From Escherichia phage vB_EcoM_CRP22: a stretch of 64,000 nt of DNA. Below, piece by piece: positions 4,102-15,245 of the stretch. The stretch lies in sequence record OQ708377.1. One strand, 5' to 3'. Under the pieces are notes generated by a model. It was not told the DNA's origin, searched no databases, and worked only from the letters and a program-made list of their open reading frames with translations. How positions within the stretch are numbered: position 1 is the first letter of the stretch; the number at the start of each line of letters is the position of its first letter. The position numbers and the translations under genes are program-made.

Positions 4102-4387
4102 CGTTAAACTCTCTGACGAAGAAATAGTTGACTTTGTTATTACCTACCATAAGGTCAAAGCAGGTATTCTCAAAAGGTTTGTTGTAGGCATCATATGAAG
4201 TGTATGTATCAGCTACTTTTTTGGTGTTGAGCTTTTTACTTGATGGATTTAAGAGGCCACCATACAGTTTCTTGATAGCCTCTTCTACAACAGACCAGAT
4301 AATTTCGTCAGTAATTTCTTCGTACAGGTCAAGTTCACGCTCTAGTGAGAAGTCACAAATAGGGAAAATAACCTGTACTTTACTCAT
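4094..4387 (-). CDS. hypothetical protein
   Basis: 97-aa ORF. Confidence 0.45.
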   Translation of the reverse strand: MSKVQVIFPICDFSLERELDLYEEITDEIIWSVVEEAIKKLYGGLLNPSSKKLNTKKVADTYTSYDAYNKPFENTCFDLMVGNNKVNYFFVREFNDE

Positions 4388-4803
4388 TAACGAATAACCT
4401 GTGTGACTTGAATTGCTTCAGTTACGGACAATTCACCTACTTTCTCTTCTTTGATAAAAGTGAAGGTGAGTTCAACAGGTTCTCCCTCTTCTTCTTCTTC
4501 TTCTTCTTCTTGCTCAACTGGAACACCATTAAGCTCATCAAAGATTGATTGGGTTGTCCAGTCTTCACCACCATCTGGGTAGTGAATTGCGTAGAGAGGG
4601 AACTCCCTGTCAAACCAACCAAATACAGGGCAGCCATCTTCATCATCTCGCATTCGATGAAGGGTGCTTCCAGACCCTGTAAAACGAAGGAATAAATCTC
4701 CGTTGCACTTGAATATTACTGCGTCGGCAAAATCAATGTCTTCTCGACCATCATGACCAAATGTGTCCACCTTTACTTGGATATCTCTAACATCTTTATT
4801 CAT
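4387..4803 (-). CDS. hypothetical protein with poly-Glu tract
   Basis: 138-aa ORF; EEEEEEEE encoded by (TTC)n on plus strand ~4487-4511. Confidence 0.45.
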   Translation of the reverse strand: MNKDVRDIQVKVDTFGHDGREDIDFADAVIFKCNGDLFLRFTGSGSTLHRMRDDEDGCPVFGWFDREFPLYAIHYPDGGEDWTTQSIFDELNGVPVEQEEEEEEEEGEPVELTFTFIKEEKVGELSVTEAIQVTQVIR

Positions 4804-5194
4804 AAAAACCTCTCTCTGCTTGTTCGATTTTCGCTTTTAGAACTTCACACCGTTCAATGTGATATCTGGCTTCATGTTCATGCGTCGCCAAAGTTCTTTC
4901 AAGAATGGTTTTATAGTAACCTGCAAGTTGCTCTCTTGTCAATGGGTTCTCTGAAATAATATCAAGACCACTTTCACCTAGAGTATTAAACTGGCCATGT
5001 TCATTTACATGGTAAGTCTCAAATTTGAATAAACAGTTATTAGCAGCCTCAATAGGTGAGAGTTCAACCAACTCAACGGTGAACATTGTATGCACTCTAT
5101 CACCAACTGTAACAATGTTACTTCCAATGATGCGTACAAGCGAACCATTGCGAGTGTACTTAAAAGTCCCAAAGTCACTAGCCCAAAGCTTCAT
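4796..5194 (-). CDS. hypothetical protein
   Basis: Start trimmed from the track ORF (4796..5305) to the internal ATG (MKLWASDF...) preceded by AAGGAG and lying just downstream of the endolysin terminator. Confidence 0.45.
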   Translation of the reverse strand: MKLWASDFGTFKYTRNGSLVRIIGSNIVTVGDRVHTMFTVELVELSPIEAANNCLFKFETYHVNEHGQFNTLGESGLDIISENPLTREQLAGYYKTILERTLATHEHEARYHIERCEVLKAKIEQAERGFYE

Positions 5195-5208
5195 AGTTTT
5201 CTCCTTAG

Positions 5209-5237
5209 AAAATAAAAAAGGCTCCCAAAGGGAGCCT
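5209..5237 (-). terminator. Rho-independent terminator after endolysin gene
   Basis: Hairpin ggctccc-aaa-gggagcc followed on the minus strand by a T-run. Confidence 0.55.
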
Positions 5238-5246
5238 ATGAAGATA

Positions 5247-5711
5247 TTACTTTGGATATATGTTGTCAAGATAAATGGCAGCTTCCATTCTACGTCTGTT
5301 TGCAAGACCTTTGGAGACTACTTTCTTACCTTTGACTGTAACCTTGTTCCACCACTGCATAGCTTCTGCACAACCGACCTTATTACCAGCGTTGTGGTGC
5401 TTGATAAATGTAGAGTCCTGCATAGCCGTGATACCAATGTTGTATGTTTCACTTACAAGTGCATCAAACTCATTCTGAGAAGTTGGAACCTTGATGGCTT
5501 TGTTAACTGCTGCAACGAACTTCTCAACATCTGCGAGAAGATACTGTTCAGCTTGTTCAGCAGTAATTTTCATACCCATCTTAACAGGTTTTCCGTCAAT
5601 ACGGATTGTACCATACCCGATTGTTGGGATTCCGGCAGAGTCTTCGTAAGCCTCTAACTTCAGGCCTTCAAAGAACTTAATGGCTTCTAAGCCTTTTCTT
5701 GAGAGTTGCAT
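5247..5711 (-). CDS. endolysin, phage lysozyme (glycoside hydrolase family 24-like)
   Basis: 154 aa; N-terminal LEAIKFFEGLKLEAYEDSAGIPTIGYG matches the conserved catalytic region of T4/P22-type lysozymes. Confidence 0.85.
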   Translation of the reverse strand: MQLSRKGLEAIKFFEGLKLEAYEDSAGIPTIGYGTIRIDGKPVKMGMKITAEQAEQYLLADVEKFVAAVNKAIKVPTSQNEFDALVSETYNIGITAMQDSTFIKHHNAGNKVGCAEAMQWWNKVTVKGKKVVSKGLANRRRMEAAIYLDNIYPK

Positions 5712-6355
5712 TATACCTCCACTACTGTGATAACTGTAACTGTAACTGTAACTGTTGCCGCATTAGATGTTACAGAGCCACCTGCACCAGTCACTACACA
5801 AGTGTAGATTCCTTCATCAGCAGCAGTTGCACCTTCTTTGGTGTAAGTTGCAGTAGTTGCATCGAGGATGTCTTCCTCACCTTTCTTCCACTGGTAACCT
5901 GTTGCACCTGTTGCCACAACATTCAGCGTTAAGGTATCACCTTCAGTGATTTCTTGATTGGTTGGCTGTTGAGTAATTGATGGTGGCTTGATAGCACCCT
6001 TCAGCTTAGCATTCAGCATTGAGAAGGGCTTAACTCTTGCCAGCCCTTCACAATAAACTGTATCAACATCTTTACCATTGATAATTGCATATTGTAAGTC
6101 CATGAAGAAGTCAGAAGTTCTCATTTGAGCACCGATGCTGTAAAGCAACTCATCACTAAATGGGACTTTGTAGTCTGGTTTGTAGTCAAACTTCTCAACT
6201 TCTGCAATATCAGCTTCAGGCCAATATGAACTATAGGTGAGTGGTAAAATAGCCTCTTGATATGTTCTAAAATCATATCTCTTACCAGCCTTTACATTTG
6301 CGATAAAGCCCTTCACAAACTCTTTGAAGTCTGGGTAAGTCTTTGCTTTAATCAT
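5711..6355 (-). CDS. hypothetical protein with C-terminal Ig-like domain; paralog of upstream gene
   Basis: 214 aa; C-terminal EGDTLTLNVVATGATGYQWKK...GIYTCVVTG is an Ig-like fold signature; N-terminal ~120 aa align with ORF 6352..6723 (FFMDLQYA vs FLMDIQYV); ends in TVTVTVTV from a hexanucleotide repeat. Confidence 0.55.
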   Translation of the reverse strand: MIKAKTYPDFKEFVKGFIANVKAGKRYDFRTYQEAILPLTYSSYWPEADIAEVEKFDYKPDYKVPFSDELLYSIGAQMRTSDFFMDLQYAIINGKDVDTVYCEGLARVKPFSMLNAKLKGAIKPPSITQQPTNQEITEGDTLTLNVVATGATGYQWKKGEEDILDATTATYTKEGATAADEGIYTCVVTGAGGSVTSNAATVTVTVTVITVVEV

Positions 6356-6723
6356 TTCTTTTTAGCCTCTAAATGTGCGTTTAGTCTAAAATAACCTTTG
6401 TGATGCGGAGATACATCACCAACAACAATGCCTTTAACCTTATAACCTTTACCAAGTACATACTGGATATCCATAAGGAATCTTCCAAGACCAACAATAT
6501 GGAACATGGGATATAATAGCTTCTCAGAGTCTGGAATATTGATTTCAGGTTTGTAGGTGCATTGTTCGCTTGTTGGTGTGATATCTTCTTCAGGCCATTT
6601 ACTGAGTCTCCATGTCAAAGGTGTTGGGATAACATCATTAAGGTTGTACCTTTCACCATTTTGCACGGAATTGATATAGGATTGTAGGAAGCAATAAAAG
6701 TCTTTTGCACTCTTAGCTTTCAT
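6352..6723 (-). CDS. hypothetical protein, paralog of N-terminal domain of 5711..6355
   Basis: 123 aa; conserved blocks KWPEEDI, YKPE, LLY, FLMDIQYV shared with downstream gene; ATGA start/stop overlap. Confidence 0.5.
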   Translation of the reverse strand: MKAKSAKDFYCFLQSYINSVQNGERYNLNDVIPTPLTWRLSKWPEEDITPTSEQCTYKPEINIPDSEKLLYPMFHIVGLGRFLMDIQYVLGKGYKVKGIVVGDVSPHHKGYFRLNAHLEAKKK

Positions 6724-6770
6724 TAAATATCCTTATAAATAGTTAAAGGGGCATCAGCCCCTATTCACAC

Positions 6771-7361
6771 TTAAGTCTTGGTCTTAAGTAGGTTCTTAAG
6801 TTTTTTAAGATTCATACTCTCATCAAACTTAAAACCAAATCCATTGACATAATCAATGAACTCGGATTTCTTACTAAGTGACAATGCGTAACTCATATCA
6901 AAGTTCTTACTTGTTTCTGCGTCTGGACTAGAGTTCACATCAAATGAAATTTCTGTAGATTCTTGCTTACTTTTTCTCATATTATCAACCAACAAACATG
7001 TATAGTTTGCTGGATAGAAGTTAACACTACCATCAACGTAGCTATACTTATTATTGTGAATAAGATTGAAAAATACATTAAAGAATGTTTCTGAGTCGTG
7101 GCACACAAGTTTGAATTGGCTGCTCTCTCCAAGCGCAACTAATGAGTACGGACTTTCACTATCAAAGTCATAATTTGGATTAGATGCCGTTACTGTTACA
7201 CGCATCAAGTTATTAGCAATAGTCTTCTGTTTAAAAGAATTTGGGACATAGTGAAGACCTCTATCACACTGATTGACTAGCTCTTTAAGTAGGTCATTTG
7301 CATATGGCGAATTAATTGATACAGAACCATCACTATTGTAATTAAAACTTACTGTTAACAT
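6771..7361 (-). CDS. hypothetical protein
   Basis: 196-aa ORF followed by hairpin aggggcatcagcccct. Confidence 0.45.
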   Translation of the reverse strand: MLTVSFNYNSDGSVSINSPYANDLLKELVNQCDRGLHYVPNSFKQKTIANNLMRVTVTASNPNYDFDSESPYSLVALGESSQFKLVCHDSETFFNVFFNLIHNNKYSYVDGSVNFYPANYTCLLVDNMRKSKQESTEISFDVNSSPDAETSKNFDMSYALSLSKKSEFIDYVNGFGFKFDESMNLKKLKNLLKTKT

Positions 7362-7588
7362 TTTTCAGTTCTCCTGCGATTTATAATTTTGCTGCAATAG
7401 AGAAACGAAGTAAACTCACTGGAAGAAACCATTAAGTGTTGTTCACTAGATTGAGCCATTGCCCTGAAATACATTCCAGTCAAAGCATCGTAGTGACTAT
7501 TCTTTCCAATTGAGGTTATATAGCCATGACTCTTTGCAGTTTTATATAAATCTATAATATCTGCGATTTCTAATTGGGAACTACACAT
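7355..7588 (-). CDS. hypothetical protein
   Basis: 77-aa ORF. Confidence 0.35.
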   Translation of the reverse strand: MCSSQLEIADIIDLYKTAKSHGYITSIGKNSHYDALTGMYFRAMAQSSEQHLMVSSSEFTSFLYCSKIINRRRTEKC

Positions 7589-7980
7589 AGATAATCCTCT
7601 TGTCTTCTGTAATTTTGAAAGAACAGGTACAGACCAATTTCAGAGGATGAATAGTAGAGTAACTCTACCCTTTTTGATTCCTTACAGTGATTGGTATTTT
7701 TACCTTTCTTCGGGTTGTTTGATTTTCTCATTAAGTCTCCTTTGTAGAACAAGGCAGACCTACAGCTTTAAGTAAGATGGTACAGTAATCCATACAACAA
7801 GTCAAGAACTATTGCAAGTTAAAAAAGTTGTTGACAAAGGACTTGACAAGGTGTAGGCTTATAAATACTTAGAAGATAACTTAAAAGGTTCCTCTAAAAA
7901 GGCTATTTAAACAGATATCTTTCTGGATATCTATCTTTTATCTTAAAAGCCTTTTAAGAGGTCTTATAAGAGGCATACCA

Positions 7981-8352
7981 ATGAAAAACAGAACAAACAA
8001 AGGCCAGTTTAAAAAAGGCCAGTCTGGAAACCCATCTGGAAGACCAAAAGGCTCTCGTAACAAAAGCTCACTTGTAAAAGCTCAACTGACCATTGATAAT
8101 TCTGCTGAGTTTGCTGCAAAGTTGTTTGAGGCGATTGTTACAAGGGACGCTGCTAAGCTTGCAGAGTTCGGTTTGACGACTGACGATGTAAACCTGAAGT
8201 CAATGATGGAAGCTGGTAAAACTATCATGACTCACTCAGCAGGTGAGATGAAAGCAATTGCAGCAGACACTAAGAAAACCACTGATAATGGTGGTCAGCC
8301 ACAGACAGATAACAAACCGACGTTCTCTGCTGTAGCGACTCTCAAAAAATAA
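7981..8352 (+). CDS. hypothetical protein with basic Gly/Pro-rich N-terminus
   Basis: 123 aa; ATG preceded by AAGAGG; N-terminal GNPSGRPKGSRNK motif. Confidence 0.45.
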   Translation: MKNRTNKGQFKKGQSGNPSGRPKGSRNKSSLVKAQLTIDNSAEFAAKLFEAIVTRDAAKLAEFGLTTDDVNLKSMMEAGKTIMTHSAGEMKAIAADTKKTTDNGGQPQTDNKPTFSAVATLKK

Positions 8353-8433: not shown

Positions 8434-9849
8434 ATGAGCGAGTTATTTAAACATGCGCACCTTCATGTAGGTCGAACTGAAAATGGTGCTGTAAACCATA
8501 CTTCATCAATGTCTGCTCTGGTAGACTTCTACAAAGCCGCTGGCTCAAGCCGTAGCAATGTAGAAATCTTACCAGACCTGTTCTACAAAGCTTTGCGTGA
8601 GGATGTTGATGTTGCAGTTCGTATTTTACTGCATATGCGAGATGTACGAGAAGGTATGGGTGAGCGTAAAGCTTTCCGAACTGTTTTGCTTCAAACGATT
8701 GAAGATAAGGTTTTAGAACCTACACAGGTTCTTCGCATTATGGATAAGATTGCAGAACTTGGTCGTTTTGATGACTTCAAAATCTTCGTAGGTACTCGTT
8801 TCGAGACAGATGCCTTCAAACATTTAGAAGCAGCATTACTAGACCCTGCAACAGCAGGTTTAGCGGCTAAGTGGTTACCACGAGTAAAACCACGCCACAA
8901 ACAGTTTGTAAAACGTTTCTGTAAGTTTGCAAACTTAAGCGAGAAGGAGTATCGCACACTGTTATCTGCACTGTCTGATACGGTTGAGCAAAAAATCTCT
9001 GCTAATGAGTTTGGTAAGATTGACTACAGCAAGATTCCTTCACTCGCTGCTGCACGTTACCAAAAACTCTTTAACCGTAAAGATGGGGAACGTTACAAAG
9101 CTTACATCGAGTCCCTCTCAAAAGGTGAGGCTAAGATTAACGCTGGTGCTGTTTACCCATATGATGTGATTAAATCTATTAAGTATGGTAATGCAGATGT
9201 TGCTAACGAGCAGTGGAAAGCACTACCAAACTGGATGGCAGAAGGTGAAAACATCTTGTGTATGACTGATGTTTCAAGCTCAATGTCTTGGGTGAATCTT
9301 GGCTCAATTACTGCCCTTGATATTGGTGTATCACTTGCCTTGTATGTAGCAGAACGCAATACAGGTTGCTTTAAAGATGAGTTAATGGTCTATTCAACAA
9401 ACCCTCATTTCATTGAACTGAGTGGTGATTTACGAAACCGTCATCGTCAGGTGATGCGTCATGTTGAATATGGTTCAACTAACTTACAAGCAGCCTTTGA
9501 CCGCATTCTTGAGACAGGTAAGAGAAACAACTTGACTCAGAAAGATATGCCAAGTAAGCTTATCATCTTCTCCGATATGGAGTTCAATCAGGTTGATGGA
9601 GCTAACGGTCGTACAAACTTTGAAGCAATTCAGAGCAAGTACAAAAAAGCTGGATATGAGATGCCACAACTGGTATTCTGGTACTTAGCAAACCGTAATG
9701 GCACTTGCGAAGTGTCTGTTAAGGATAATGGTGTAGCAATGGTATCAGGGTTCTCTCCAGCCACTTTAAAAGCTCTGCTTGGTGGTGAGAAGTTTGACCC
9801 AATCAGCGTAATGCTCAAAGCAGTAATGATTGACCGTTACATCTGGTAA
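8434..9849 (+). CDS. von Willebrand factor A (vWA) domain protein; possible Ro60/TROVE-like protein
   Basis: 471 aa; MIDAS-type DxSxS motif (CMTDVSSSMSW) after a ~270-aa N-terminal region; Ro60 assignment is inference from context only. Confidence 0.6.
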   Translation: MSELFKHAHLHVGRTENGAVNHTSSMSALVDFYKAAGSSRSNVEILPDLFYKALREDVDVAVRILLHMRDVREGMGERKAFRTVLLQTIEDKVLEPTQVLRIMDKIAELGRFDDFKIFVGTRFETDAFKHLEAALLDPATAGLAAKWLPRVKPRHKQFVKRFCKFANLSEKEYRTLLSALSDTVEQKISANEFGKIDYSKIPSLAAARYQKLFNRKDGERYKAYIESLSKGEAKINAGAVYPYDVIKSIKYGNADVANEQWKALPNWMAEGENILCMTDVSSSMSWVNLGSITALDIGVSLALYVAERNTGCFKDELMVYSTNPHFIELSGDLRNRHRQVMRHVEYGSTNLQAAFDRILETGKRNNLTQKDMPSKLIIFSDMEFNQVDGANGRTNFEAIQSKYKKAGYEMPQLVFWYLANRNGTCEVSVKDNGVAMVSGFSPATLKALLGGEKFDPISVMLKAVMIDRYIW

Positions 9850-10014: not shown

Positions 10015-10091
10015 CTCTGTTTAGCTCAGCTTGGTAGAGCGTTCCGTTTGGGGCGGTAAGGCCGGAGGTTCAAGTCCTCCAACAGAGACCA
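10015..10091 (+). tRNA. tRNA-Pro (anticodon TGG)
   Basis: 7-bp acceptor ctctgtt/aacagag, D-arm GCTCAGCTTGGTAGAGC, T-arm ggagg-ttcaagt-cctcc, CCA encoded. Confidence 0.75.
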
Positions 10092-10098
10092 AATTAAT

Positions 10099-10176
10099 GT
10101 TCCAGTAGACAAAATGGTATAGTCACCACTCTTTCAAAGTGGATATTTGAGGGTTCAAATCCCTTCTGGAACGCCA
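10099..10176 (+). tRNA. tRNA-Glu (anticodon TTC)
   Basis: Acceptor gttccag/ctggaac, anticodon stem ccact/agtgg with loop ctTTCaa, T-loop ttcaaat, CCA. Confidence 0.75.
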
Positions 10177-10267
10177 GTTTTGACAGAAGACCAATTACAG
10201 CAAGTTTAATCTTATTCATCTGACACGAAATCGGACAAAGAAGAGATTTGGTCTGGTCATTAAGAAT

Positions 10268-10344
10268 TGCGGGTATAGAGAAAGGGCGTCTCACATGTCT
10301 CATTAGCATGGTATCGGCAGGTTCGACTCCTGCACCCGCCTCCA
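10268..10344 (+). tRNA. tRNA-Met (anticodon CAT)
   Basis: Acceptor tgcgggt/acccgcc, anticodon loop ctCATta, T-arm gcagg-ttcgact-cctgc, CCA. Confidence 0.65.
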
Positions 10345-10421
10345 ATTTTGCAGAAGACCGTATTCAGCAACAAACTACTTTTTGCGGATAAAAGAAAAAA
10401 CACGGTCTGGCAATGTATTAA

Positions 10422-10497
10422 GGTTAGGAAGCACATAAGGTATGTGCGGTCGCCTGTTAAGCGAATGGCACAGGGTTCGAATCCCTGACTAACCGCA
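10422..10497 (+). tRNA. tRNA-Asn (anticodon GTT)
   Basis: Anticodon loop ctGTTaa, T-arm caggg-ttcgaat-ccctg; acceptor has one mismatch. Confidence 0.6.
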
Positions 10498-10506
10498 AAA
10501 TTAAAT

Positions 10507-10594
10507 GTGTCGTTATCCCGTAGATGGTAGCGGTGGGGACTGTAAATCCCTTGTCATTGAGACTCGGTAGGTTCGACTCCTACACGGCACACCA
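10507..10594 (+). tRNA. tRNA-Tyr (anticodon GTA), long variable arm
   Basis: Acceptor gtgtcgt/acggcac, anticodon stem gggga/tccct with loop ctGTAaa, long extra arm, T-arm gtagg-ttcgact-cctac, CCA. Confidence 0.7.
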
Positions 10595-10616
10595 ACACTT
10601 AGCGAGATACTTAGTT

Positions 10617-11045
10617 ATGAGAGATGAAGTATACAAATCACAACTTGGTATGAGTTTAGGAACTGCACAAAACAGACTAGTAAAAGATTTGCTATTCGAT
10701 TTTATATGTAAAACAAATCAAAATAGATGTTTTCAGTGCGGAAAAGAAATGACTAGGGATGATTTCTCCATCGAGCATAAGGTTCCGTGGAGACATAGTG
10801 AAAACGCAAAAGAGCTTTTCTTTTCACTGGATAATATCTCTTATAGTCATCTTAAATGTAATATGAAAGCAGCAAGACCAGCACAGATAAGTGAAAGAAA
10901 ACATAAAACAGTTGAACACGGAACTGCGTATAGCTATTACAAAGGCTGTAGATGCGAGGAGTGTAGGTTGGCTAAGAATGCTGCTAGCAGGAAGAACTAT
11001 AGCCCAGAAAGGCGTAGGAAGAAGTATTTAAGAAATGGCACATAG
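10617..11045 (+). CDS. HNH endonuclease (free-standing, inside tRNA array)
   Basis: 143 aa from internal ATG; CFQCGKEM...EHKVPW...HLKCN zinc-binding HNH-like motifs; the track ORF start at 10524 overlaps tRNA-Tyr and is rejected. Confidence 0.7.
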   Translation: MRDEVYKSQLGMSLGTAQNRLVKDLLFDFICKTNQNRCFQCGKEMTRDDFSIEHKVPWRHSENAKELFFSLDNISYSHLKCNMKAARPAQISERKHKTVEHGTAYSYYKGCRCEECRLAKNAASRKNYSPERRRKKYLRNGT

Positions 11046-11049
11046 TTTT

Positions 11050-11125
11050 GGGGTATTAGTTTAGACGGTTAAAATACGGGATTGTCTCTCCTGAGCCGCG
11101 AGTTCGATTCTCGCATACCTCGCCA
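11050..11125 (+). tRNA. tRNA-Asp (anticodon GTC)
   Basis: Acceptor ggggtat/atacctc, anticodon stem cggga/tcctg with loop ttGTCtc, T-arm gcgag-ttcgatt-ctcgc, CCA. Confidence 0.7.
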
Positions 11126-11273
11126 ATTTTGAGAGGGCTATTTAGCCCCTCCCTTAAAGAGTTATTACGAGTATTCTTTAAAGGAGCAGAAGACCAAATT
11201 CAGCAAGTTACTTAAAATTTCAAGCCAATTTAATTTTGAAAAATTTAAAACTTGGTCTGGCTTAACAAATTTA

Positions 11274-11404
11274 CAGAAGACCGTTTACAGCAAAACTTAA
11301 ACAATCTATTTCTCGGTAAAGAAAAGGCGAAGGTTCGATTCCTTCACTCGGCAGATGTCGAGTTGGTGTAATGGTAGCACTTAAGATGATAAACAACGGT
11401 CTGG
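11274..11404 (+). ncRNA. Candidate structured ncRNA: circularly permuted tRNA-like module enclosed by an 8-bp stem (possible Y-RNA/YrlA-like element)
   Basis: Linear order is stem strand agaccgtt, T-arm gaagg-ttcgatt-ccttc, acceptor 3' strand actcggc, 4-nt loop, acceptor 5' strand gtcgagt, D-arm gtgt-aatggta-gcac, stem strand aacggtct; the acceptor halves pair over 7 bp. Confidence 0.35.
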
Positions 11405-11405
11405 T

Positions 11406-11551
11406 AATTATCTTTGCAGTAGCTTATGTGGCTAATTATGTCGTCCCATGAGTGCCGATGAATTTCCTTAGCATGATTCTAGATTAGCTTAATAGGGAAT
11501 GACTCTACAGACCCTTTAGCAAGGTCTGCGTAGGTTACTGCAAAGATAATT
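11406..11551 (+). ncRNA. Candidate structured RNA domain closed by a 16-bp stem
   Basis: aattatctttgcagta (11406-11421) is the perfect reverse complement of tactgcaaagataatt (11535-11550), enclosing ~112 nt with an internal cagacc...ggtctg hairpin. Confidence 0.3.
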
Positions 11552-11555
11552 TAAT

Positions 11556-11631
11556 GGAAGTGTAGCAGAATGGTGATGCGGCAGACTTTTAATCTGACAG
11601 GCGATGGGTTCGAATCCATCCACTTCTACCA
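11556..11631 (+). tRNA. tRNA-Lys (anticodon TTT)
   Basis: Acceptor ggaagtg/cacttct, anticodon loop ctTTTaa, T-loop ttcgaat, CCA. Confidence 0.6.
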
Positions 11632-11635
11632 ATAT

Positions 11636-11712
11636 GGTTCAGTCGCAGATAAGGTAATGCAGGGGTCTCATAAGCCCTATGAATGTGGGTTCGATTCCCA
11701 TCTGAACCTCCA
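11636..11712 (+). tRNA. tRNA with anticodon CAT (Met, initiator-like, or Ile2)
   Basis: Acceptor ggttcag/ctgaacc, anticodon loop ctCATaa on a stem with three consecutive G-C pairs, T-loop ttcgatt, CCA. Confidence 0.7.
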
Positions 11713-11714
11713 AT

Positions 11715-11790
11715 GCTGTGAAAGCACATATGGATGTGCATTCGGCTGATAACCGAAAGGAAGAAGGTTCGAATCCTTCTCACAGTACCA
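11715..11790 (+). tRNA. tRNA-Ile (anticodon GAT)
   Basis: Acceptor gctgtga/tcacagt, anticodon stem ttcgg/ccgaa with loop ctGATaa, T-arm gaagg-ttcgaat-ccttc, CCA. Confidence 0.7.
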
Positions 11791-11805
11791 ATTTCAATAA
11801 AGTTG

Positions 11806-11834
11806 TTGACATTGAGATGTGACCACTTTATAGT
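11806..11834 (+). promoter_or_regulatory. sigma70-like promoter inside the tRNA array
   Basis: TTGACA - 17 nt - TATAGT, preceded by A-rich tract aaagttg. Confidence 0.5.
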
Positions 11835-12126
11835 AACTAAAATACTTCATAATATGTATAATTCAAACACCAATACATGAGTATTAGACGTAATGCAATG
11901 TGGGGAAATTTGTTGTACATATTCTGAATAGTTTTCGTTGCGTAGCGTCTATTTTGCAAATTTAAAATAAATGCAAACGACAATGTTTTTCTGGCAGTAG
12001 CTTGATAGGCTAAACACCAGTGAGGTCTTCCAATCCCTCATCAAAGAATTTGGCGTACTCGCCCACGGTATGATTAATAAGGTGGGCATCTTTAAGGGTT
12101 TTTAAGAGAGTCTTTAAAGATAATTA

Positions 12127-12208
12127 CGGGGCGTATCTCAGCTGTCTTCTAAACAGCCGTTAACCGAGTAAGTGGAGTATGCGGGTTCGAGTCCTGCCGC
12201 CTCGACCA
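12127..12208 (+). tRNA. Atypical tRNA-like gene, possibly Arg (anticodon TCT); D-arm not resolvable
   Basis: Acceptor cggggcg/cgcctcg, T-arm gcggg-ttcgagt-cctgc, CCA; clean stem gctgt/acagc with loop ctTCTaa but no canonical D-arm by eye. Confidence 0.4.
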
Positions 12209-12222
12209 ATTTTGGAGAAATC

Positions 12223-12570
12223 ATGAAAACTTGTATTAGGTGCAAACTTAGCAAGGATGAAAATGATTTCTACATGAAAGATGGTAGAAGAACTCATTCA
12301 TACTGTAAAAAGTGTGTTAATGAGCAAACCATAGAAAGACAAAGAGCACTTAAACTCTCAGCTATTGAGTACAAAGGTGGTGTTTGTCAGGATTGTGGTA
12401 AAAGGTATCATCCAGCAGTGTATGACTTCCATCATTTGAATCCTTCAGAGAAAGATTTTAACATTGCTCATAGAAGAAGTCTTAAGTTCTCTCAGGAGCT
12501 TAAGAACGAACTTGACAAATGTGTTTTGCTATGTTCAAATTGCCATAGGGTAAGACATGCAAAGTATTAG
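12223..12570 (+). CDS. HNH endonuclease (free-standing, inside tRNA array)
   Basis: 115 aa from internal ATG (MKTCIRCK...); CxxC pairs and FHHLNP...LLCSNCHRVRH HNH motif; the track start at 12172 overlaps the preceding tRNA-like gene. Confidence 0.7.
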   Translation: MKTCIRCKLSKDENDFYMKDGRRTHSYCKKCVNEQTIERQRALKLSAIEYKGGVCQDCGKRYHPAVYDFHHLNPSEKDFNIAHRRSLKFSQELKNELDKCVLLCSNCHRVRHAKY

Positions 12571-12707
12571 TTAGCAGATTGCTTAGACGACCTTATCGGG
12601 TCTCCGTGTAAGGAGGTGGTCTGTATCTCATGTTTTCCAGAACATGTAAATAATCTGAGAAGGGGCTTTACAGTGTTGAGATAATACGGTAAGCTTCGAA
12701 TTATAAT

Positions 12708-12790
12708 ATGGGACGATGTTAAGACTCTAAGGCATGAGCAACGGCTTCCAACACCGTTTCAAAGGGGTTCAACTCCTCCGTCCCATGCCA
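12708..12790 (+). tRNA. Atypical tRNA-like gene with an apparent 9-nt anticodon loop
   Basis: Perfect acceptor atgggac/gtcccat, T-loop ttcaact, CCA; best anticodon helix aacgg/ccgtt encloses cttccaaca (9 nt); D-region longer than canonical. Confidence 0.4.
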
Positions 12791-12803
12791 AAGTCTTATT
12801 AGG

Positions 12804-12893
12804 GGTAGGTAGCGGCTAATGGTAGCCAAACTGTCTTGAAAACAGTTGCCACTGTAGAGATACGGTGAGGGTTCGACTCCTTTACTTACCGCC
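12804..12893 (+). tRNA. tRNA-Ser (anticodon TGA), long variable arm
   Basis: Acceptor ggtaggt/acttacc, anticodon stem actgt/acagt with loop ctTGAaa, long variable arm, T-loop ttcgact. Confidence 0.7.
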
Positions 12894-13148
12894 TAATAAG
12901 ATTTAAAGCCAAGCTTCATTCGGATGTTGCTTTGGTATCCCTCGTGTATTGTCGTACACACTGATAAAGCACCTGGTAGGTGTCACGGAGAAGAGATAAT
13001 ATCAAGCTCTCCAAAGGTTCTAGTCACCGGATTAAACAAGACTATGCAAAGACCAATTTAGGTCTTTTTAGAGGGCTTCTAAGGTTATTACAGCTTGTTG
13101 TGGAACCTTGTTGCTTAGGTTCTTAGAAGTTCTCTAAAAAGATTTAAT

Positions 13149-13225
13149 GCACCTATAGCCCAATTGGTAGAGGCAGCAGACTTAGAATCTGTTCAGTGTG
13201 AGTTCGAATCTCTCTAGGTGTACCA
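13149..13225 (+). tRNA. tRNA with anticodon TAG (Leu-type), short variable arm
   Basis: Acceptor gcaccta/taggtgt, anticodon stem gcaga/tctgt with loop ctTAGaa, T-loop ttcgaat, A73, CCA. Confidence 0.6.
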
Positions 13226-13232
13226 AATTAAT

Positions 13233-13308
13233 GCAGGTGTAGCAAAATGGTTATGCGGCTGACTCTTAATCAGTAAGACGATGGGTTCAATTCCCTCCAC
13301 CTGTACCA
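13233..13308 (+). tRNA. tRNA-Lys (anticodon CTT)
   Basis: Acceptor gcaggtg/cacctgt, anticodon stem gctga/tcagt with loop ctCTTaa, T-loop ttcaatt (weak T-stem), CCA. Confidence 0.55.
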
Positions 13309-13314
13309 AACATT

Positions 13315-13390
13315 GGGGTCATAGTTTATATGGTTAAAATTCGAGTTTTGCAAACTTGGGAACTGAGTTCAATTCTCAGTGACTCCACCA
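13315..13390 (+). tRNA. tRNA-Ala (anticodon TGC)
   Basis: Acceptor ggggtca/tgactcc, anticodon stem cgagt/acttg with loop ttTGCaa, T-arm ctgag-ttcaatt-ctcag, CCA. Confidence 0.7.
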
Positions 13391-13396
13391 ATTAGT

Positions 13397-13471
13397 GCAT
13401 CCATAGTTTAAACGGGAAAATTACAGTCTTCCAAACTGAGGTTGAGGGTTCGATTCCCTCTGGATGCTCCA
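13397..13471 (+). tRNA. tRNA-Gly (anticodon TCC)
   Basis: Acceptor gcatcca/tggatgc, anticodon loop ctTCCaa, T-arm gaggg-ttcgatt-ccctc, CCA. Confidence 0.7.
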
Positions 13472-13478
13472 AATTAAT

Positions 13479-13555
13479 GCTGCTTTCGTATAATTGGCTA
13501 TTACACATCCCTTGTAAGGATGGAAATGCAGGTTCGAGTCCTGTGAGCAGCACCA
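13479..13555 (+). tRNA. tRNA-Thr (anticodon TGT)
   Basis: Acceptor gctgctt/gagcagc, anticodon stem catcc/ggatg with loop ctTGTaa, T-arm gcagg-ttcgagt-cctgt, CCA. Confidence 0.7.
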
Positions 13556-13651
13556 ATTCAGAGGTCAAGTGAAAGACCGCTTTGAGTCAACTGAAGACCG
13601 TAACAAATCCCACGGAGTTGAGTTAGCGGCACAACTTCAGACCTCTTTCAT

Positions 13652-13726
13652 ACTCGCTTAGTTTATATGGTAAAACATCAACCTTACAAGATGAAGAAAA
13701 AGGTTCAAGTCCTTTAGTGAGTACCA
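13652..13726 (+). tRNA. tRNA-Val (anticodon TAC)
   Basis: Acceptor actcgct/agtgagt, D-stem gttt/aaac, anticodon loop ctTACaa, T-arm aaagg-ttcaagt-ccttt, CCA. Confidence 0.65.
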
Positions 13727-13727
13727 T

Positions 13728-13805
13728 GTTCCAGTATCCCAATTGGCAGAGGATGCAAGCTCAAACCTTGTATTAGTGACGGTTCGAATCCGTCTTGGAA
13801 CACCA
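13728..13805 (+). tRNA. tRNA with anticodon CAA (Leu-type), short variable arm
   Basis: Acceptor gttccag/ttggaac, anticodon stem gcaag/cttgt with loop ctCAAac, T-arm gacgg-ttcgaat-ccgtc, A73, CCA. Confidence 0.6.
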
Positions 13806-13810
13806 ATTTT

Positions 13811-13885
13811 GCAGGATTAGTTCAAATGGATAGAGCAACAGTCTACGAAGCTGTTAATAGGGGTTCGAATCCCTTATCCTGCGCC
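13811..13885 (+). tRNA. tRNA-Arg (anticodon ACG)
   Basis: Perfect acceptor gcaggat/atcctgc, D-arm TAGTTCAAATGGATAGAGC, anticodon loop ctACGaa, T-loop ttcgaat, CCA. Confidence 0.75.
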
Positions 13886-13892
13886 AATTAAA

Positions 13893-13969
13893 TAGGGGAT
13901 TAGTTTACAAGGTTAAAACCTCGGTCTTTGAAATCGAAGAAGTTGGTTCAATTCCAACATCCCCCGCCA
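13893..13969 (+). tRNA. tRNA-Gln (anticodon TTG)
   Basis: Acceptor aggggat/atccccc (1-72 mismatch), D-stem gttt/aaac, anticodon stem tcggt/atcga with loop ctTTGaa, T-arm gttgg-ttcaatt-ccaac, CCA. Confidence 0.65.
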
Positions 13970-13971
13970 AT

Positions 13972-14050
13972 GCTCCATTACTCCAATTGGCAGAGAGGCC
14001 AGACTTAAAATCTGTGTTATGTATCGGTTCGAATCCGATATGGAGTACCA
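13972..14050 (+). tRNA. tRNA with anticodon TAA (Leu-type)
   Basis: Acceptor gctccat/atggagt, anticodon loop ctTAAaa, T-arm atcgg-ttcgaat-ccgat, A73, CCA; D-arm parse ambiguous. Confidence 0.55.
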
Positions 14051-14055
14051 AATTT

Positions 14056-14131
14056 AGCGGTATAGCATAACTGGCAATGCAGCAGTCTCTGAAGCTGTCT
14101 TATTAAGGTTCAAATCCTTATGCCGCTGCCA
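14056..14131 (+). tRNA. tRNA-Gln (anticodon CTG)
   Basis: Acceptor agcggta/tgccgct, D-stem gcat/atgc, anticodon stem gcagt/gctgt with loop ctCTGaa, T-loop ttcaaat, CCA. Confidence 0.65.
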
Positions 14132-14162
14132 CTTCTAAGGGTTCTTACGAGAGTCCTTAAAT

Positions 14163-14238
14163 GTGGCCTTATCATAAAAGGTAATGACCCATGCTGTGAA
14201 CATGGTCTATACGGGTTCAAATCCCGTAGGTCACCCCA
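14163..14238 (+). tRNA. tRNA-His (anticodon GTG)
   Basis: Acceptor gtggcct/aggtcac, anticodon stem ccatg/catgg with loop ctGTGaa, T-arm acggg-ttcaaat-cccgt, CCA. Confidence 0.7.
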
Positions 14239-14243
14239 ATTTA

Positions 14244-14320
14244 TAGTCCAAGTAGCTTATATGGTTAAAGCGCGTGTCTGAAAAACATGAGAAGAGGGTT
14301 CAAATCCCACTGGACTACCA
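14244..14320 (+). tRNA. tRNA-Phe (anticodon GAA)
   Basis: Acceptor tagtcca/tggacta, D-stem gctt/aagc, anticodon stem cgtgt/acatg with loop ctGAAaa, T-loop ttcaaat. Confidence 0.6.
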
Positions 14321-14337
14321 ATTTCAAAGGTGCTTAA

Positions 14338-15071
14338 TGAAAGAGATGACAGAACAAGGTAAGGAGATTTTTAATCTCTTAAAAACCGGTAGAGGGTTTT
14401 CTAATCCCCTTATTACTGGTGCAGCAGTTCTCGGTGGAACCGTAGCTACCTCTACATCACTTGTAAACTCTATTAGCTCTGTAACAGACCCTACAATAAA
14501 GGATAAACTTGTTGCTGCTGGACTTACAACAGTTCTGCTTAACAGCTTTACAACGAGTCTGACAAGCACTACATCAACCACTAAAACACCGACAGATTAC
14601 GGTCAAAAGTCCATTGATGAGTTTTCATCACGTATGCAGGTAGCAAAAGGATACTCTAATGTTATGGGTGCAGCAGGAGAGCAAGTTGGTTGTACACCAT
14701 TTAGTGGTATTATGGGTGTTGCTACAGAGTATGGTCAAAAAGCTATTGACACAATTAACAGTGCACTAGACGGTGTTAATGATGTATTAAGTGACTTACA
14801 AGATGCTATTGATAAAGGTCTTGATACTATTTCTGATTTAGCTAACCAAGCTGTTAGTAAGATTAATGAAGGTATTTCGAAGATTACAGCTTATGCAGAT
14901 GAAGTTGTGCAGATGATTGAAGAAGAAGCTGCCCTTATTGCAGAGTACCTTAAAACGAATATCAATGGGTTCTTAGCAGGTATCTTACCAGACTGGTTTG
15001 ACGATGCTTGTAAAACTGGTGTGATTGATACTATTGCAACACCAGAAATGAAGAACGCATTACAGAAATAA
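14338..15071 (+). CDS. hypothetical Ser/Thr-rich protein encoded inside the tRNA array
   Basis: 244 aa from internal ATG (MKEMTEQGKEIF...); the track start at 14274 overlaps tRNA-Phe; long S/T-rich region followed by a helical C-terminus. Confidence 0.45.
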
Positions 15072-15072
15072 T

Positions 15073-15165
15073 GGAAGATTAACCCTAAAAGGTAAGGGAG
15101 CAGTTTGCTAAACTGCCAGTAGCTGAGAAATCGGTGTACCAGTTCAAGTCTGGTATCTTCCTCCA
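15073..15165 (+). tRNA. tRNA-Ser (anticodon GCT), long variable arm
   Basis: Perfect acceptor ggaagat/atcttcc, anticodon stem gcagt/actgc with loop ttGCTaa, long variable arm, T-arm accag-ttcaagt-ctggt, CCA. Confidence 0.75.
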
Positions 15166-15169
15166 ATTT

Positions 15170-15245
15170 GAATCCGTGACAGAAATGGCTATGTGCCTGT
15201 CTGCAAAACAGGTTTATAAGGGTTCGAGTCCCTTCGGATTCTCCA
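15170..15245 (+). tRNA. tRNA-Cys (anticodon GCA)
   Basis: Perfect acceptor gaatccg/cggattc, anticodon stem cctgt/acagg with loop ctGCAaa, T-arm aaggg-ttcgagt-ccctt, CCA. Confidence 0.75.

Follow-up and report, generated by a model that had tools for sequence, protein, structure and literature searches.

The closest described counterparts of the locus analyzed here are the Hex-Dec protein of phage Bas63 and gp20 of phage Sf14, both of which have been solved by cryo-EM (PMC12609058; PMC11821841). In the two structures the N-terminal domain forms a plug at the center of a capsid hexamer and the Ig-like domains extend outward, with the protein present as a monomer at the quasi-3-fold hexamer centers of a T=9 capsid (PMC12609058; PMC11821841). 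In Sf14, the counterparts of Arg79 and Arg107 form salt bridges with Asp221 of the capsid protein (PMC11821841), and in phage Felix O1 gp36 has been detected in virions by mass spectrometry with 44% coverage (PMC3185647). The structure papers liken these proteins to Hoc of phage T4, which is likewise a monomer at hexamer centers, presents an outward string of Ig-like domains and is encoded away from the main cluster of head genes (PMC12609058; PMC11821841). The capsid-binding domain (CapBD), however, is C-terminal in Hoc and N-terminal in Hex-Dec, and the comparison made in the structure papers found the two domains to be topologically distinct, with minimal sequence similarity.

The window, by which we mean the whole 64,000-nucleotide stretch of Escherichia phage vB_EcoM_CRP22 that was analyzed (OQ708377.1), is the genome of a Felixounavirus (a Felix O1-like myophage). 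The region of interest matches 249 phage records, the best of them 94.3% identical and nearly all of them Felixounavirus or other Ounavirinae, and has the following layout:

6747..6762, minus strand: GC-rich hairpin AGGGGC-TGAT-GCCCCT followed by TTTAACTATTTAT (RNA fold; Felix O1 Table 2)
6352..6723, minus strand: paralog of 123 aa, consisting of the CapBD only, without an Ig domain (BLASTP, phmmer, AF2 and Foldseek)
5711..6355, minus strand: Hex-Dec gene, 214 aa, one-Ig allele (phmmer against the PDB; synteny)
5247..5711, minus strand: endolysin, a GH24 phage lysozyme (Pfam Phage_lysozyme, E 8.4e-41)
5219..5237, minus strand: intrinsic-terminator-like hairpin and T-run at the end of the three-gene block (terminator scan)

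When the 214-aa protein was searched against the PDB with phmmer, it matched Bas63 Hex-Dec (9NCF chain S, E 8.5e-207) and Sf14 gp20 (9C2D chain S, E 6.5e-146); residues 1-207 of the query align with residues 1-208 of 9NCF_S, and the gene is syntenic with Felix O1 ORF36 and Sf14 gp20. Because it is near-identical to these solved structures, we identify the protein from its sequence as Hex-Dec, a decoration protein of capsid hexamer centers that is functionally Hoc-like. Indeed, chain S of Bas63 and Sf14 (9NCF; 9C2D/9C3A) and the window protein are orthologs: the CapBD is nearly identical to that of Bas63 and strongly conserved relative to that of Sf14, and the likeness extends to the order of the CapBD followed by I-set Ig repeats, to Arg79 and Arg107, and to the position of the gene between the paralog and the endolysin. 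The window protein differs in having one Ig domain, versus four in Bas63 and three in Sf14, in its unique four-copy TV tail, and in carrying Gly in place of an otherwise invariant Trp104. By extension from the solved structures, its N-terminal ~120 aa would sit as a monomer centered in the 60 pentamer-proximal (quasi-3-fold) hexamers of a T=9 head, would be held there in part by contacts of Arg79 and Arg107 with residue Asp221 of the major capsid subunit, and would leave the single C-terminal I-set Ig-like domain projecting outward. The first-pass annotation had considered no function to be recognizable; the domain shared by the two proteins is the CapBD of a head decoration protein of solved structure (9NCF_S, 9C2D_S). 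Hex-Dec is an ordinary system that has already been solved, and we found no evidence against the identity. We put the probability of the explanation as a whole, namely a Hex-Dec decoration protein with a repeat subject to slippage and a paralog derived from its capsid-binding domain, at roughly 0.85.

Two other functions have been suggested for proteins of this locus. Database annotation makes the 214-aa protein a tail protein, as UniRef does for the paralog: product names in GenBank and RefSeq are 'tail protein' or 'HK97 major tail subunit', and phrog_3995 carries the label 'tail protein'. We regard this as scarcely credible, and for the 214-aa protein the annotation is refuted by 9NCF and 9C2D, in which its homolog is seen by cryo-EM at capsid hexamer centers. 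The label derives from the similarity of the Ig domain to tail proteins that bear Ig domains, and the Bas63 authors state explicitly that it is a misannotation (PMC12609058). For this genome, the analysis thus mends a widespread 'tail protein' misannotation in favor of a decoration protein solved in 2025. The first-pass annotation had suggested a role in lysis or at the cell surface from the position next to the endolysin; for the two proteins this could mean action at the host envelope, or as holin, spanin or lysis regulator. Their place directly upstream of the endolysin, with a stop/start overlap, is conserved even in distant lineages. Such a role is very improbable, and for the 214-aa protein it is contradicted by the capsid location of close homologs, as established in close relatives by cryo-EM and mass spectrometry. 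Moreover, neither protein contains a transmembrane-grade segment (maximum 19-aa Kyte-Doolittle scores of 1.11 for the paralog and 1.48 for the Hex-Dec tail, both below about 1.6), neither matches a lysis family in Pfam, PHROGs or NCBIfam, and the Felix O1 authors name other genes as holin candidates. The conserved adjacency to the endolysin seems to reflect a single transcription unit whose genes are tightly coupled, and not a shared role in lysis. Of the two outcomes that the first-pass annotation had named as counting against its proposal, a known structural protein behind the shared domain and an invariant repeat number, we observed the former and not the latter, the copy number being two or three in relatives and four in the window.

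No Hoc chain was found among the PDB sequence matches of the 214-aa protein (phmmer), and the PHROG families described as 'Hoc-like head decoration' match only its Ig part (residues 127-207); Hex-Dec works like Hoc and is not a member of the Hoc family. T4 Hoc is non-essential, and by analogy with it the Ig domain of Hex-Dec probably serves weak adhesion or aggregation and is probably dispensable for assembly. We know of no Ig-less tandem paralog of Hoc. [quoted passage not shown] Its Ig domain is homologous to that of Hex-Dec (E 1.4e-8 for 8ZVI_a, and 2.5e-8), but the alignment is limited to the Ig region (query residues 132-207), and the capsid-binding domains of the two proteins share no sequence similarity detectable by phmmer.

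Within and at the end of the Hex-Dec gene we distinguished the following features:

5990..6355, minus strand: CapBD, residues 1-122 (near residue-for-residue alignment with the modeled CapBD of 9NCF_S and 9C2D_S)
6119-6121, minus strand: codon for Arg79, present in the window protein
6044-6046, minus strand: codon GGG for Gly104, where relatives have Trp
6035-6037, minus strand: codon for Arg107, present in the window protein
5741..5986, minus strand: single I-set Ig-like domain, residues 124-205 (Pfam)
5731..5754, minus strand: in-frame (ACAGTT)4, which reads TAACTG on the plus strand and encodes TVTVTVTV in the C-terminal tail (TRF)
5709..5720, minus strand: last codons of Hex-Dec, which are also the endolysin Shine-Dalgarno sequence GGAGG (5716-5720) (read from the sequence)

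The CapBD, which is about 118-122 aa long, is homologous to the modeled chain S of 9NCF and 9C2D. Trp occupies position 104 in 43 of 43 database representatives and the window has Gly, a difference of one base. For this reason the window Hex-Dec could have a defect in capsid binding; alternatively, the base could have been miscalled. Since Trp104 is not a family-defining residue in either structure paper, we take Gly104 to be a peculiarity of the allele or a base-call error, and no ground for excluding the protein from the Hex-Dec family. A profile search run exhaustively over 1.84 billion representatives returned only 12 family members, none of them an annotated relative informative on function, and by this search the CapBD is confined to Ounavirinae-like phages. 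Among more distant lineages the slot can be filled by a single gene without any Ig domain, such as P0104 (153 aa), which encodes a CapBD and a Lys/Ser-rich tail. No tandem paralog lies beside a second distant member (P0100), whose upstream 205-aa neighbor is unrelated.

The C-terminal Ig-like domain that the first-pass annotation had ascribed to the second gene is recognized by Pfam at residues 124-205 as Ig_3 (E 4.5e-10), I-set (1.9e-8) and Ig_2 (5.7e-8), and each of these matches clears its curated cut-off. Hex-Dec proteins have one to four Ig domains in the published range, and the window protein, with one, is the shortest known form. Its Ig matches the last one of two- to four-Ig alleles: compared with VpaE1 and P0096, it is identical at 74 of 80 positions to their last Ig, versus 55 of 79 to their first. 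In Felix O1, the second Ig is chimeric and combines two repeats. Retention of the last Ig in the one-Ig allele and the chimeric repeat of Felix O1, both of which are additions beyond the structure papers, together point to recombination between repeats as the means by which Ig number changes.

The tandem paralogy and shared N-terminal domain of ~120 aa reported in the first-pass annotation were borne out by BLASTP, which aligned the paralog with Hex-Dec at 34% identity over 125 columns (E 4e-17), and when 28 paralogs were aligned with 16 Hex-Dec sequences, 26 columns were invariant in both groups. The paralog also matched 9NCF_S in a phmmer search (E 2.6e-11). Its AF2 model, which is of moderate quality (mean pLDDT 63.7), gave 9ncf_S and 9c2d_S as the only significant Foldseek matches (TM 0.62-0.64, probability 1.00), with nothing else below E 0.5. 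The protein ends at residue 123 with no Ig domain and has no match in Pfam or NCBIfam; the only PHROG that it matches is a family of 'unknown function', phrog_4463, of which it is a full-length member (E 1.2e-79) equal to Felix O1 ORF37 and Sf14 gp21 and without any difference that sets it apart. The paralog is thus a capsid-binding domain without any Ig, with a predicted CapBD fold, and represents an old duplicate of that domain from which the display domain is missing. Position 79 is Gly rather than Arg in all paralogs aligned, and position 107 is His in the window, Gln in most paralogs and Arg in a few. However, because distant single-copy members of the family also vary at positions 79 and 107, the missing arginines say little either way about the paralog. 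Net charge and pI revealed no consistent difference between paralogs and CapBDs.

A near-full-length match to the paralog is present in 232 of 252 matching phage records, from Felixounavirus, Mooglevirus and SUSP2-like phages, with 77-98% identity across three genera; about 19 of the 252 have a weak match only, namely to the CapBD of Hex-Dec. In a deep lineage, an intact ortholog with 45% identity keeps the order of paralog, Hex-Dec and lysozyme. The length of the protein is 122-124 aa in nearly all clusters, and dN/dS is 0.06-0.2; between Felixounavirus and Mooglevirus, at a dS of about 1.1, it is about 0.16. The paralog is therefore under purifying selection, with its synteny kept across the subfamily. 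It is a decayed pseudogene in phage REP11 and, on that evidence, is dispensable.

In Felix O1, ORF36 (Hex-Dec) and ORF37 (the paralog) are both maximally expressed at 60 min, and their neighbors on either side, ORF35 and ORF38, reach their peak at 25 min (PMC3185647). ORF37 is absent from the list of Felix O1 virion proteins, in which smaller proteins of 9.7-13 kDa were detected (PMC3185647); the list was filtered at a coverage of at least 25%, and the absence is negative evidence. For VpaE1, three additional virion proteins have been named, none of which is gp40, the counterpart of the paralog. We found no mention of the paralog in the Bas63 and Sf14 cryo-EM papers (PMC12609058; PMC11821841) or the Sf14 supplement, no mention of gp21 in the Sf14 tRNA paper, no relevant text on its virion proteomics in the wV8 paper, and no report in the literature of homology between phrog_4463 and the CapBD of Hex-Dec. 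The paralog as a conserved, late-expressed relative of the CapBD under purifying selection is an addition beyond the structure papers.

What the paralog does can be framed in several ways. We tentatively favor, at rather less than even odds, an accessory protein made late that does not stay in the virion as a stable component and would act transiently on hexamer centers or on Hex-Dec while heads are being assembled. As a placeholder or competitor, for instance, it might influence where Hex-Dec binds and in what amount. It is improbable that the paralog is a decaying duplicate without function that persists only through its place inside a tightly packed transcription unit. The REP11 pseudogene, the 19 or so records with a weak match only and the lack of any reported function or virion presence would fit such a duplicate, but the low dN/dS (even at a dS of about 1.1), the constant length and the intact ortholog at the same position in a deep lineage argue against it.

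Distinctly less likely than a transient accessory factor, although well ahead of simple decay, is a decoration protein of the virion, that is, an Ig-less plug that would occupy the 20 true 3-fold hexamers or would compete with Hex-Dec for the hexamer centers that the latter uses and so set the density of Ig fibers. The predicted fold is that of the capsid-binding domain, the gene is late and co-transcribed with Hex-Dec in Felix O1, its stop overlapping the Hex-Dec start, and the true 3-fold hexamers are left empty by Hex-Dec (PMC12609058; PMC11821841). In addition, P0104, in which a single gene encodes a CapBD with no Ig, makes a bare CapBD seem a viable product. Against a virion plug stand the absence of the paralog from the Felix O1 list and the VpaE1 additions, its lack of Arg79 and its loss in REP11-type phages. 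Both cryo-EM studies, furthermore, place Hex-Dec/gp20 only on hexamers other than the true 3-fold ones, and the Bas63 paper says that density was absent elsewhere (PMC12609058). Somewhat more doubtful still is the idea that the paralog is a second, overlooked ligand of hexamer centers that determines the decoration of 60 of the 80 hexamers by Hex-Dec and tunes the number of Ig fibers per head. Binding of this kind could be transient in assembly, or stable at the 20 true 3-fold hexamers, positions at which a monomer would be blurred by icosahedral averaging, and if it occurs it would amount to a paralog-based mechanism for patterning capsid decoration. More generally, if the paralog acts on capsid hexamers, it could account for the site selectivity of Hex-Dec and would be relevant to phage-display engineering on Felix O1-type heads. 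The locus overall is a known system, and the conserved Ig-less paralog is the remaining, modest point of interest.

The order of paralog, Hex-Dec and endolysin is common to RPN213, VpaE1, Sf14, phiWec172, Felix O1 and a metagenomic contig (L008). The Hex-Dec gene lies outside the main structural module, and its position beside the endolysin is kept even in distant lineages; the endolysin itself is context and falls outside the decoration system. The hairpin at 6747..6762, between a 196-aa gene and the paralog, forms the 5' edge of the paralog/Hex-Dec/endolysin block. The 51 nt around it fold at -14.4 kcal/mol (z = -3.2), and Table 2 of the Felix O1 paper lists its sequence among the rho-independent terminators of that phage (PMC3185647). 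At the other end of the block, the hairpin at 5219..5237 has a stem of 8 bp with 6 GC pairs followed by TTTTTTATTTT. A scan of 5000-8100 for sigma-70 promoters gave 8 matches versus 8.6 in shuffled sequences, and we therefore claim no promoter. The stop codon of the paralog overlaps the start codon of Hex-Dec as ATGA, which suggests translational coupling. The Hex-Dec stop and endolysin start overlap as TAATG (5709-5713), and this arrangement, with the Shine-Dalgarno sequence inside Hex-Dec, is also found in RPN213, VpaE1 and phiWec172.

The hexanucleotide repeat described in the first-pass annotation, (TAACTG)4 at 5731-5754 encoding TVTVTVTV, was recovered by Tandem Repeats Finder as 4.2 copies at 5731-5755 with 100% matches, (ACAGTT)4 on the coding strand; about 1e-6 perfect four-copy hexamers would be expected by chance in 64 kb. 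Its copy number changes in frame, as had been anticipated: two copies (GCAACAGTTACAGTTAAT…) are present in RPN213, VpaE1 and most other relatives, three in phiWec172/174/177 and cluster P0062, and four in the window only. An IMG/VR scan for at least three ACAGTT copies yielded no further Felixounavirus alleles, its one match being an unrelated gene that ends …SATVTVTVTEATE. The four copies most likely arose by slipped-strand expansion of ACAGTTACAGTT, the end of every Ig repeat (…ATVTV), and the change in copy number is most likely neutral slippage, with neutrality being an assumption. We rejected phase variation, since gain or loss of 6-nt units leaves the reading frame intact. This slippage-prone repeat, with its two-, three- and four-copy forms near the endolysin ribosome-binding site, is an addition beyond the structure papers. 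It sits 10 nt upstream of that site, in the short tail past the Ig fold that carries the site as well, and expansion to four copies raises the hydrophobicity of the Hex-Dec tail.

Two overlapping genes of the window encode proteins that share an N-terminal domain, as the first-pass annotation had proposed from the sequence. In particular, BLASTP aligned the shorter product, hereafter the paralog, with the 214-aa product of the downstream gene at 34% identity over 125 columns (E 4e-17), and when 28 short homologs were aligned with 16 long ones, 26 columns were invariant in both groups, including WPExDI, LLY, FxMDxQ and LNAxL. The C-terminal Ig-like domain of the longer protein was likewise recovered, with Pfam Ig_3, I-set and Ig_2 all scoring above their curated cut-offs for residues 124-205, and the adjacent gene is indeed an endolysin gene. 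The features are arranged as follows.

6747-6762: hairpin just upstream of the paralog gene (surrounding 51 nt: -14.4 kcal/mol, z -3.2)
6352..6723, minus strand: paralog gene, 123 aa
5711..6355, minus strand: Hex-Dec gene, 214 aa
5247..5711, minus strand: endolysin gene downstream of Hex-Dec, a GH24 phage lysozyme by Pfam

The paralog stop codon overlaps the Hex-Dec start codon in the sequence ATGA. The authors of the Felix O1 study counted the hairpin upstream of the paralog as a terminator (PMC3185647), and a terminator scan placed a strong terminator 3' of the endolysin gene.

Matches to the region came from 249 phage records, with 94.3% identity for the best of them; nearly all are Felixounavirus or other Ounavirinae, and the window is therefore part of a Felix O1-like myophage genome. 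A PDB sequence search with the 214-aa protein returned chain S of 9NCF ('Immunoglobulin-like domain protein', 460 aa; E 8.5e-207) and chain S of 9C2D/9C3A ('Tail protein', 372 aa; E 6.5e-146), which come from the reconstructed capsids of phage Bas63 (PMC12609058) and of Shigella phage Sf14 (PMC11821841), respectively. These matches identify a decoration protein and so overturn the earlier statement that no function was recognisable; they also replace the guess of a lysis or cell-surface role with that of a protein which, judged by homology to the solved structures, is a hexamer-centre decoration protein of the capsid. In the published capsids the true 3-fold hexamers lack Hex-Dec or its Sf14 ortholog gp20, and the string of Ig-like domains reaches outwards, as in T4 Hoc (PMC12609058, PMC11821841). 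Arg79 and Arg107 of Sf14 gp20 form salt bridges to Asp221 of the capsid protein (PMC11821841), and the window protein has arginine at both positions. Consistent with a virion location, the Felix O1 ortholog gp36 was detected in purified virions with 44% peptide coverage (PMC3185647). The 214-aa gene is thus an allele, with one Ig, of a head decoration protein that is already known and structurally solved, and its product belongs to the Bas63 Hex-Dec/Sf14 gp20 family, having every defining feature of that family that can be read from sequence. A role in the tail is effectively excluded by the capsid position of the homologs in cryo-EM and by the statement of the Bas63 authors that 'tail protein', the label usually given, is a misannotation (PMC12609058); a lysis role, for either protein of the pair, is effectively excluded as well. 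By way of a domain at its N terminus that binds the capsid (CapBD, residues 1-122), the window protein would bind 60 hexamers per head, and the single Ig domain that it displays is likely to mediate weak adhesion or aggregation, the role proposed for Hoc. The likeness to T4 Hoc is one of action: the 214-aa protein is not a member of that family, its domain order is reversed and CapBD similarity is absent. T5 pb10 has the same layout, with homology detectable in the Ig domain only.

Publications of 2025 essentially explain the gene pair; what is left as new is the CapBD-only paralog, which had gone unremarked, together with minor features of the window allele, namely the orthology of its Ig domain to terminal ones, a four-copy repeat and the substitution W104G. 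At position 104 the window encodes Gly (GGG, 6044-6046, minus strand), whereas 43 of 43 scorable database representatives have Trp (TGG). Gly104 sits three residues ahead of the capsid-contacting Arg107, and W104G could be either a base-call error or an allele able to weaken folding or capsid binding.

The number of Ig-like domains in this protein ranges from one to four among Felixounavirus species (PMC12609058). Among the best 30 of the 249 records, the spans matched by a 2501-nt query fell into classes of about 2488, 2739, 2989 and 3240 nt, corresponding to 1, 2, 3 and 4 Ig repeats. The window Ig is identical at 74/80 positions to the final Ig of both the VpaE1 protein (two Ig domains) and the database protein P0096 (three), but at only 55/79 to the first Ig of each, and in the Bas63 alignment it is closest to the fourth Ig (136 bits, versus 94 for the second and 88 for the third). 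The second Ig of Felix O1 ORF36 (NC_005282.1, 2520-3404) is chimeric: it begins like an internal repeat of 3-4-Ig alleles and ends like a terminal repeat, a structure suggestive of crossing-over inside the repeats, at the conserved ATGATGYQWKK segment. These similarity patterns agree with unequal homologous recombination between repeats of ~249 nt.

The hexanucleotide repeat near the 3' end of Hex-Dec was also confirmed: Tandem Repeats Finder reported TAACTG x4.2 at 5731-5755 with zero mismatches, the four full units (5731-5754) reading (ACAGTT)4 on the coding strand and encoding TVTVTVTV within the C-terminal NAATVTVTVTVITVVEV. By chance, such perfect repeats are expected at ~1e-6 per 64 kb. 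Every Ig repeat finishes GCA ACA GTT ACA GTT AAT (ATVTVN), which makes two ACAGTT copies the ground state. Copy number varies among relatives, a check the first-pass annotation had called for, and the alleles (with the residues preceding the stop codon) are these.

2 copies: RPN213, VpaE1, Felix O1 and almost all other records; tail ATVTVNPxGEx
3 copies: phiWec172/174/177 and the 31-member metagenomic cluster P0062; tail ATVTVTVIPxVGV
4 copies: the window only, among the records compared; tail ATVTVTVTVITVVEV

In nearly all matches listed, 127 nt stand opposite query positions 3-141 (139 nt); the three phiWec phages have 133 nt there, and no listed match has 139 nt. Polymorphism in 6-nt steps is as expected for slipped-strand mispairing. 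As anticipated, the frame is kept at every copy number, which rules out a phase-variation switch. The tract lies past the last β-strand of the Ig fold, and its expansion would most likely be neutral. The tail ends in (G/V)E(V/A) because the final Hex-Dec codons include GGAGG (5716-5720), the Shine-Dalgarno sequence of the endolysin gene, and because the Hex-Dec stop overlaps the endolysin start as TAATG. A scan of IMG/VR for at least three ACAGTT copies found only an unrelated viral gene, which ends with (ACAGTT)3 (IMGVR_UViG_3300028805_000643, 2657-2677), encoding SATVTVTVTEATE at the C terminus of a protein that is probably Ig-like or β-rich. (Note that the window also holds a perfect (TCT)8.3 at 4487-4511, encoding EEEEEEEEE in a 138-aa hypothetical protein (4387..4803, minus strand); this gene is 417 nt long, versus 399-408 nt for its orthologs in RPN213, VpaE1 and phiWec172, and judging from these whole-gene lengths the tract may be another in-frame microsatellite that is polymorphic in length.)

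The paralog has no Pfam or NCBIfam match and belongs, over its full length, to phrog_4463 (labelled 'unknown function'). It matches 9NCF_S (E 2.6e-11) and 9C2D_S (E 5.4e-11) directly in sequence, and the same two chains were the sole significant Foldseek PDB matches (TM 0.62-0.64, probability 1.00; next match E 0.5) of its AlphaFold2 model, which is of moderate confidence (mean pLDDT 63.7, pTM 0.66). Since both searches point to these chains, the paralog is a CapBD without a display domain. Its position 79 is Gly, and position 107 is His, Gln or Arg.

When 1.84 billion representative proteins were searched with a profile built from both paralog types, a wider CapBD family of only 12 members was recovered. 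The distant members occupy the same slot as a single gene after a 183-185-aa gene, with a lysozyme gene immediately next wherever the contig reaches far enough. Their C termini differ: Big_2 in P0100 (P0101 and P0103 similar by eye), a weak I-set match in P0102, and only a Lys/Ser-rich tail in P0104 (153 aa). Four of the loci, all on metagenomic contigs, are as follows.

L010, 869-1489: Big_2 (Pfam); contig too short to show context
L014, 3182-3799: Big_2-like by eye; shares the window's upstream neighbours
L011, 5001-5462: Lys/Ser-rich tail; shares the window's upstream neighbours, lysozyme gene directly after
L016, 2179-2868: weak I-set match; context differs

CapBD thus appears to be an anchoring module with exchangeable cargo. 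For the distant members, scores are higher against the CapBD of Hex-Dec than against the short paralog. We conclude from these sequence comparisons that the duplication arose within the Felixounavirus/Mooglevirus lineage and its nearer relatives, and that the short copy is more derived than the Hex-Dec CapBD.

Near-full-length paralog matches occur in 232 of 252 matching phage records, at 84-98% identity in Felixounavirus, 77% in Mooglevirus (Sf14 gp21) and 74% in SUSP2-like phages. A 45%-identical ortholog lies in an 87-kb metagenomic contig with conserved order (195-aa gene, paralog, two-Ig Hex-Dec, lysozyme). Paralog sequences give pairwise dN/dS values of 0.06-0.2, those of the Hex-Dec CapBD 0.02-0.08. 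Distribution, kept gene order and dN/dS are together evidence, at the sequence level, for a maintained gene. In phage REP11 (OQ174510.1, 2306-2497) the paralog is a decayed pseudogene with a broken frame, a lost start codon and an internal deletion of ~230 nt, next to an intact two-Ig Hex-Dec, and ~19 of the 252 records show only a weak cross-match of the paralog to Hex-Dec; the paralog is therefore dispensable for laboratory growth. That it is a functionless relic is nevertheless improbable, given the dN/dS values and how deeply it is conserved.

By RT-PCR, Felix O1 ORF36 and ORF37 (the paralog) were both 'maximal at 60 min', in a class with morphogenesis genes, whereas ORF35 (lysin) and ORF38, on either side, reached their peak at 25 min; the list of Felix O1 virion proteins lacks ORF37, yet includes proteins down to 9.7 kDa (PMC3185647). 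For VpaE1, the counterpart gp40 is not among the three extra virion proteins named, and text searches found no mention of the paralog in PMC12609058, PMC11821841 or the Sf14 supplement. In Bas63, no density was seen on hexamers other than those bearing Hex-Dec (PMC12609058). The main rival reading, set beside these observations, is that the paralog is a stable plug lacking an Ig domain, one conceivable site being the 20 true 3-fold hexamers; we consider this reading rather unlikely. Our leading reading, itself tentative (probability roughly 40%), is that the paralog has a late accessory role off the mature virion, in which it would contact hexamer centres or Hex-Dec transiently during head assembly.

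Two further features of the neighbourhood were recorded. A mechanical ORF list includes a TTG-start ORF of 169 aa (4796..5305, minus strand) overlapping the endolysin gene at the 3' end of the latter; the counterpart of this ORF in annotated relatives is 399 nt with an internal ATG start, which makes the long form a probable artefact of ORF calling. A few kb from the gene pair, 25 tRNA genes are clustered on the plus strand at 10015-15245, a kind of cluster typical for Felix O1-like phages. Before it lie a DUF5681 gene (7981..8352) and a gene of 471 aa (8434..9849) that carries the annotation DUF2828 'RNA-binding protein' in relatives.
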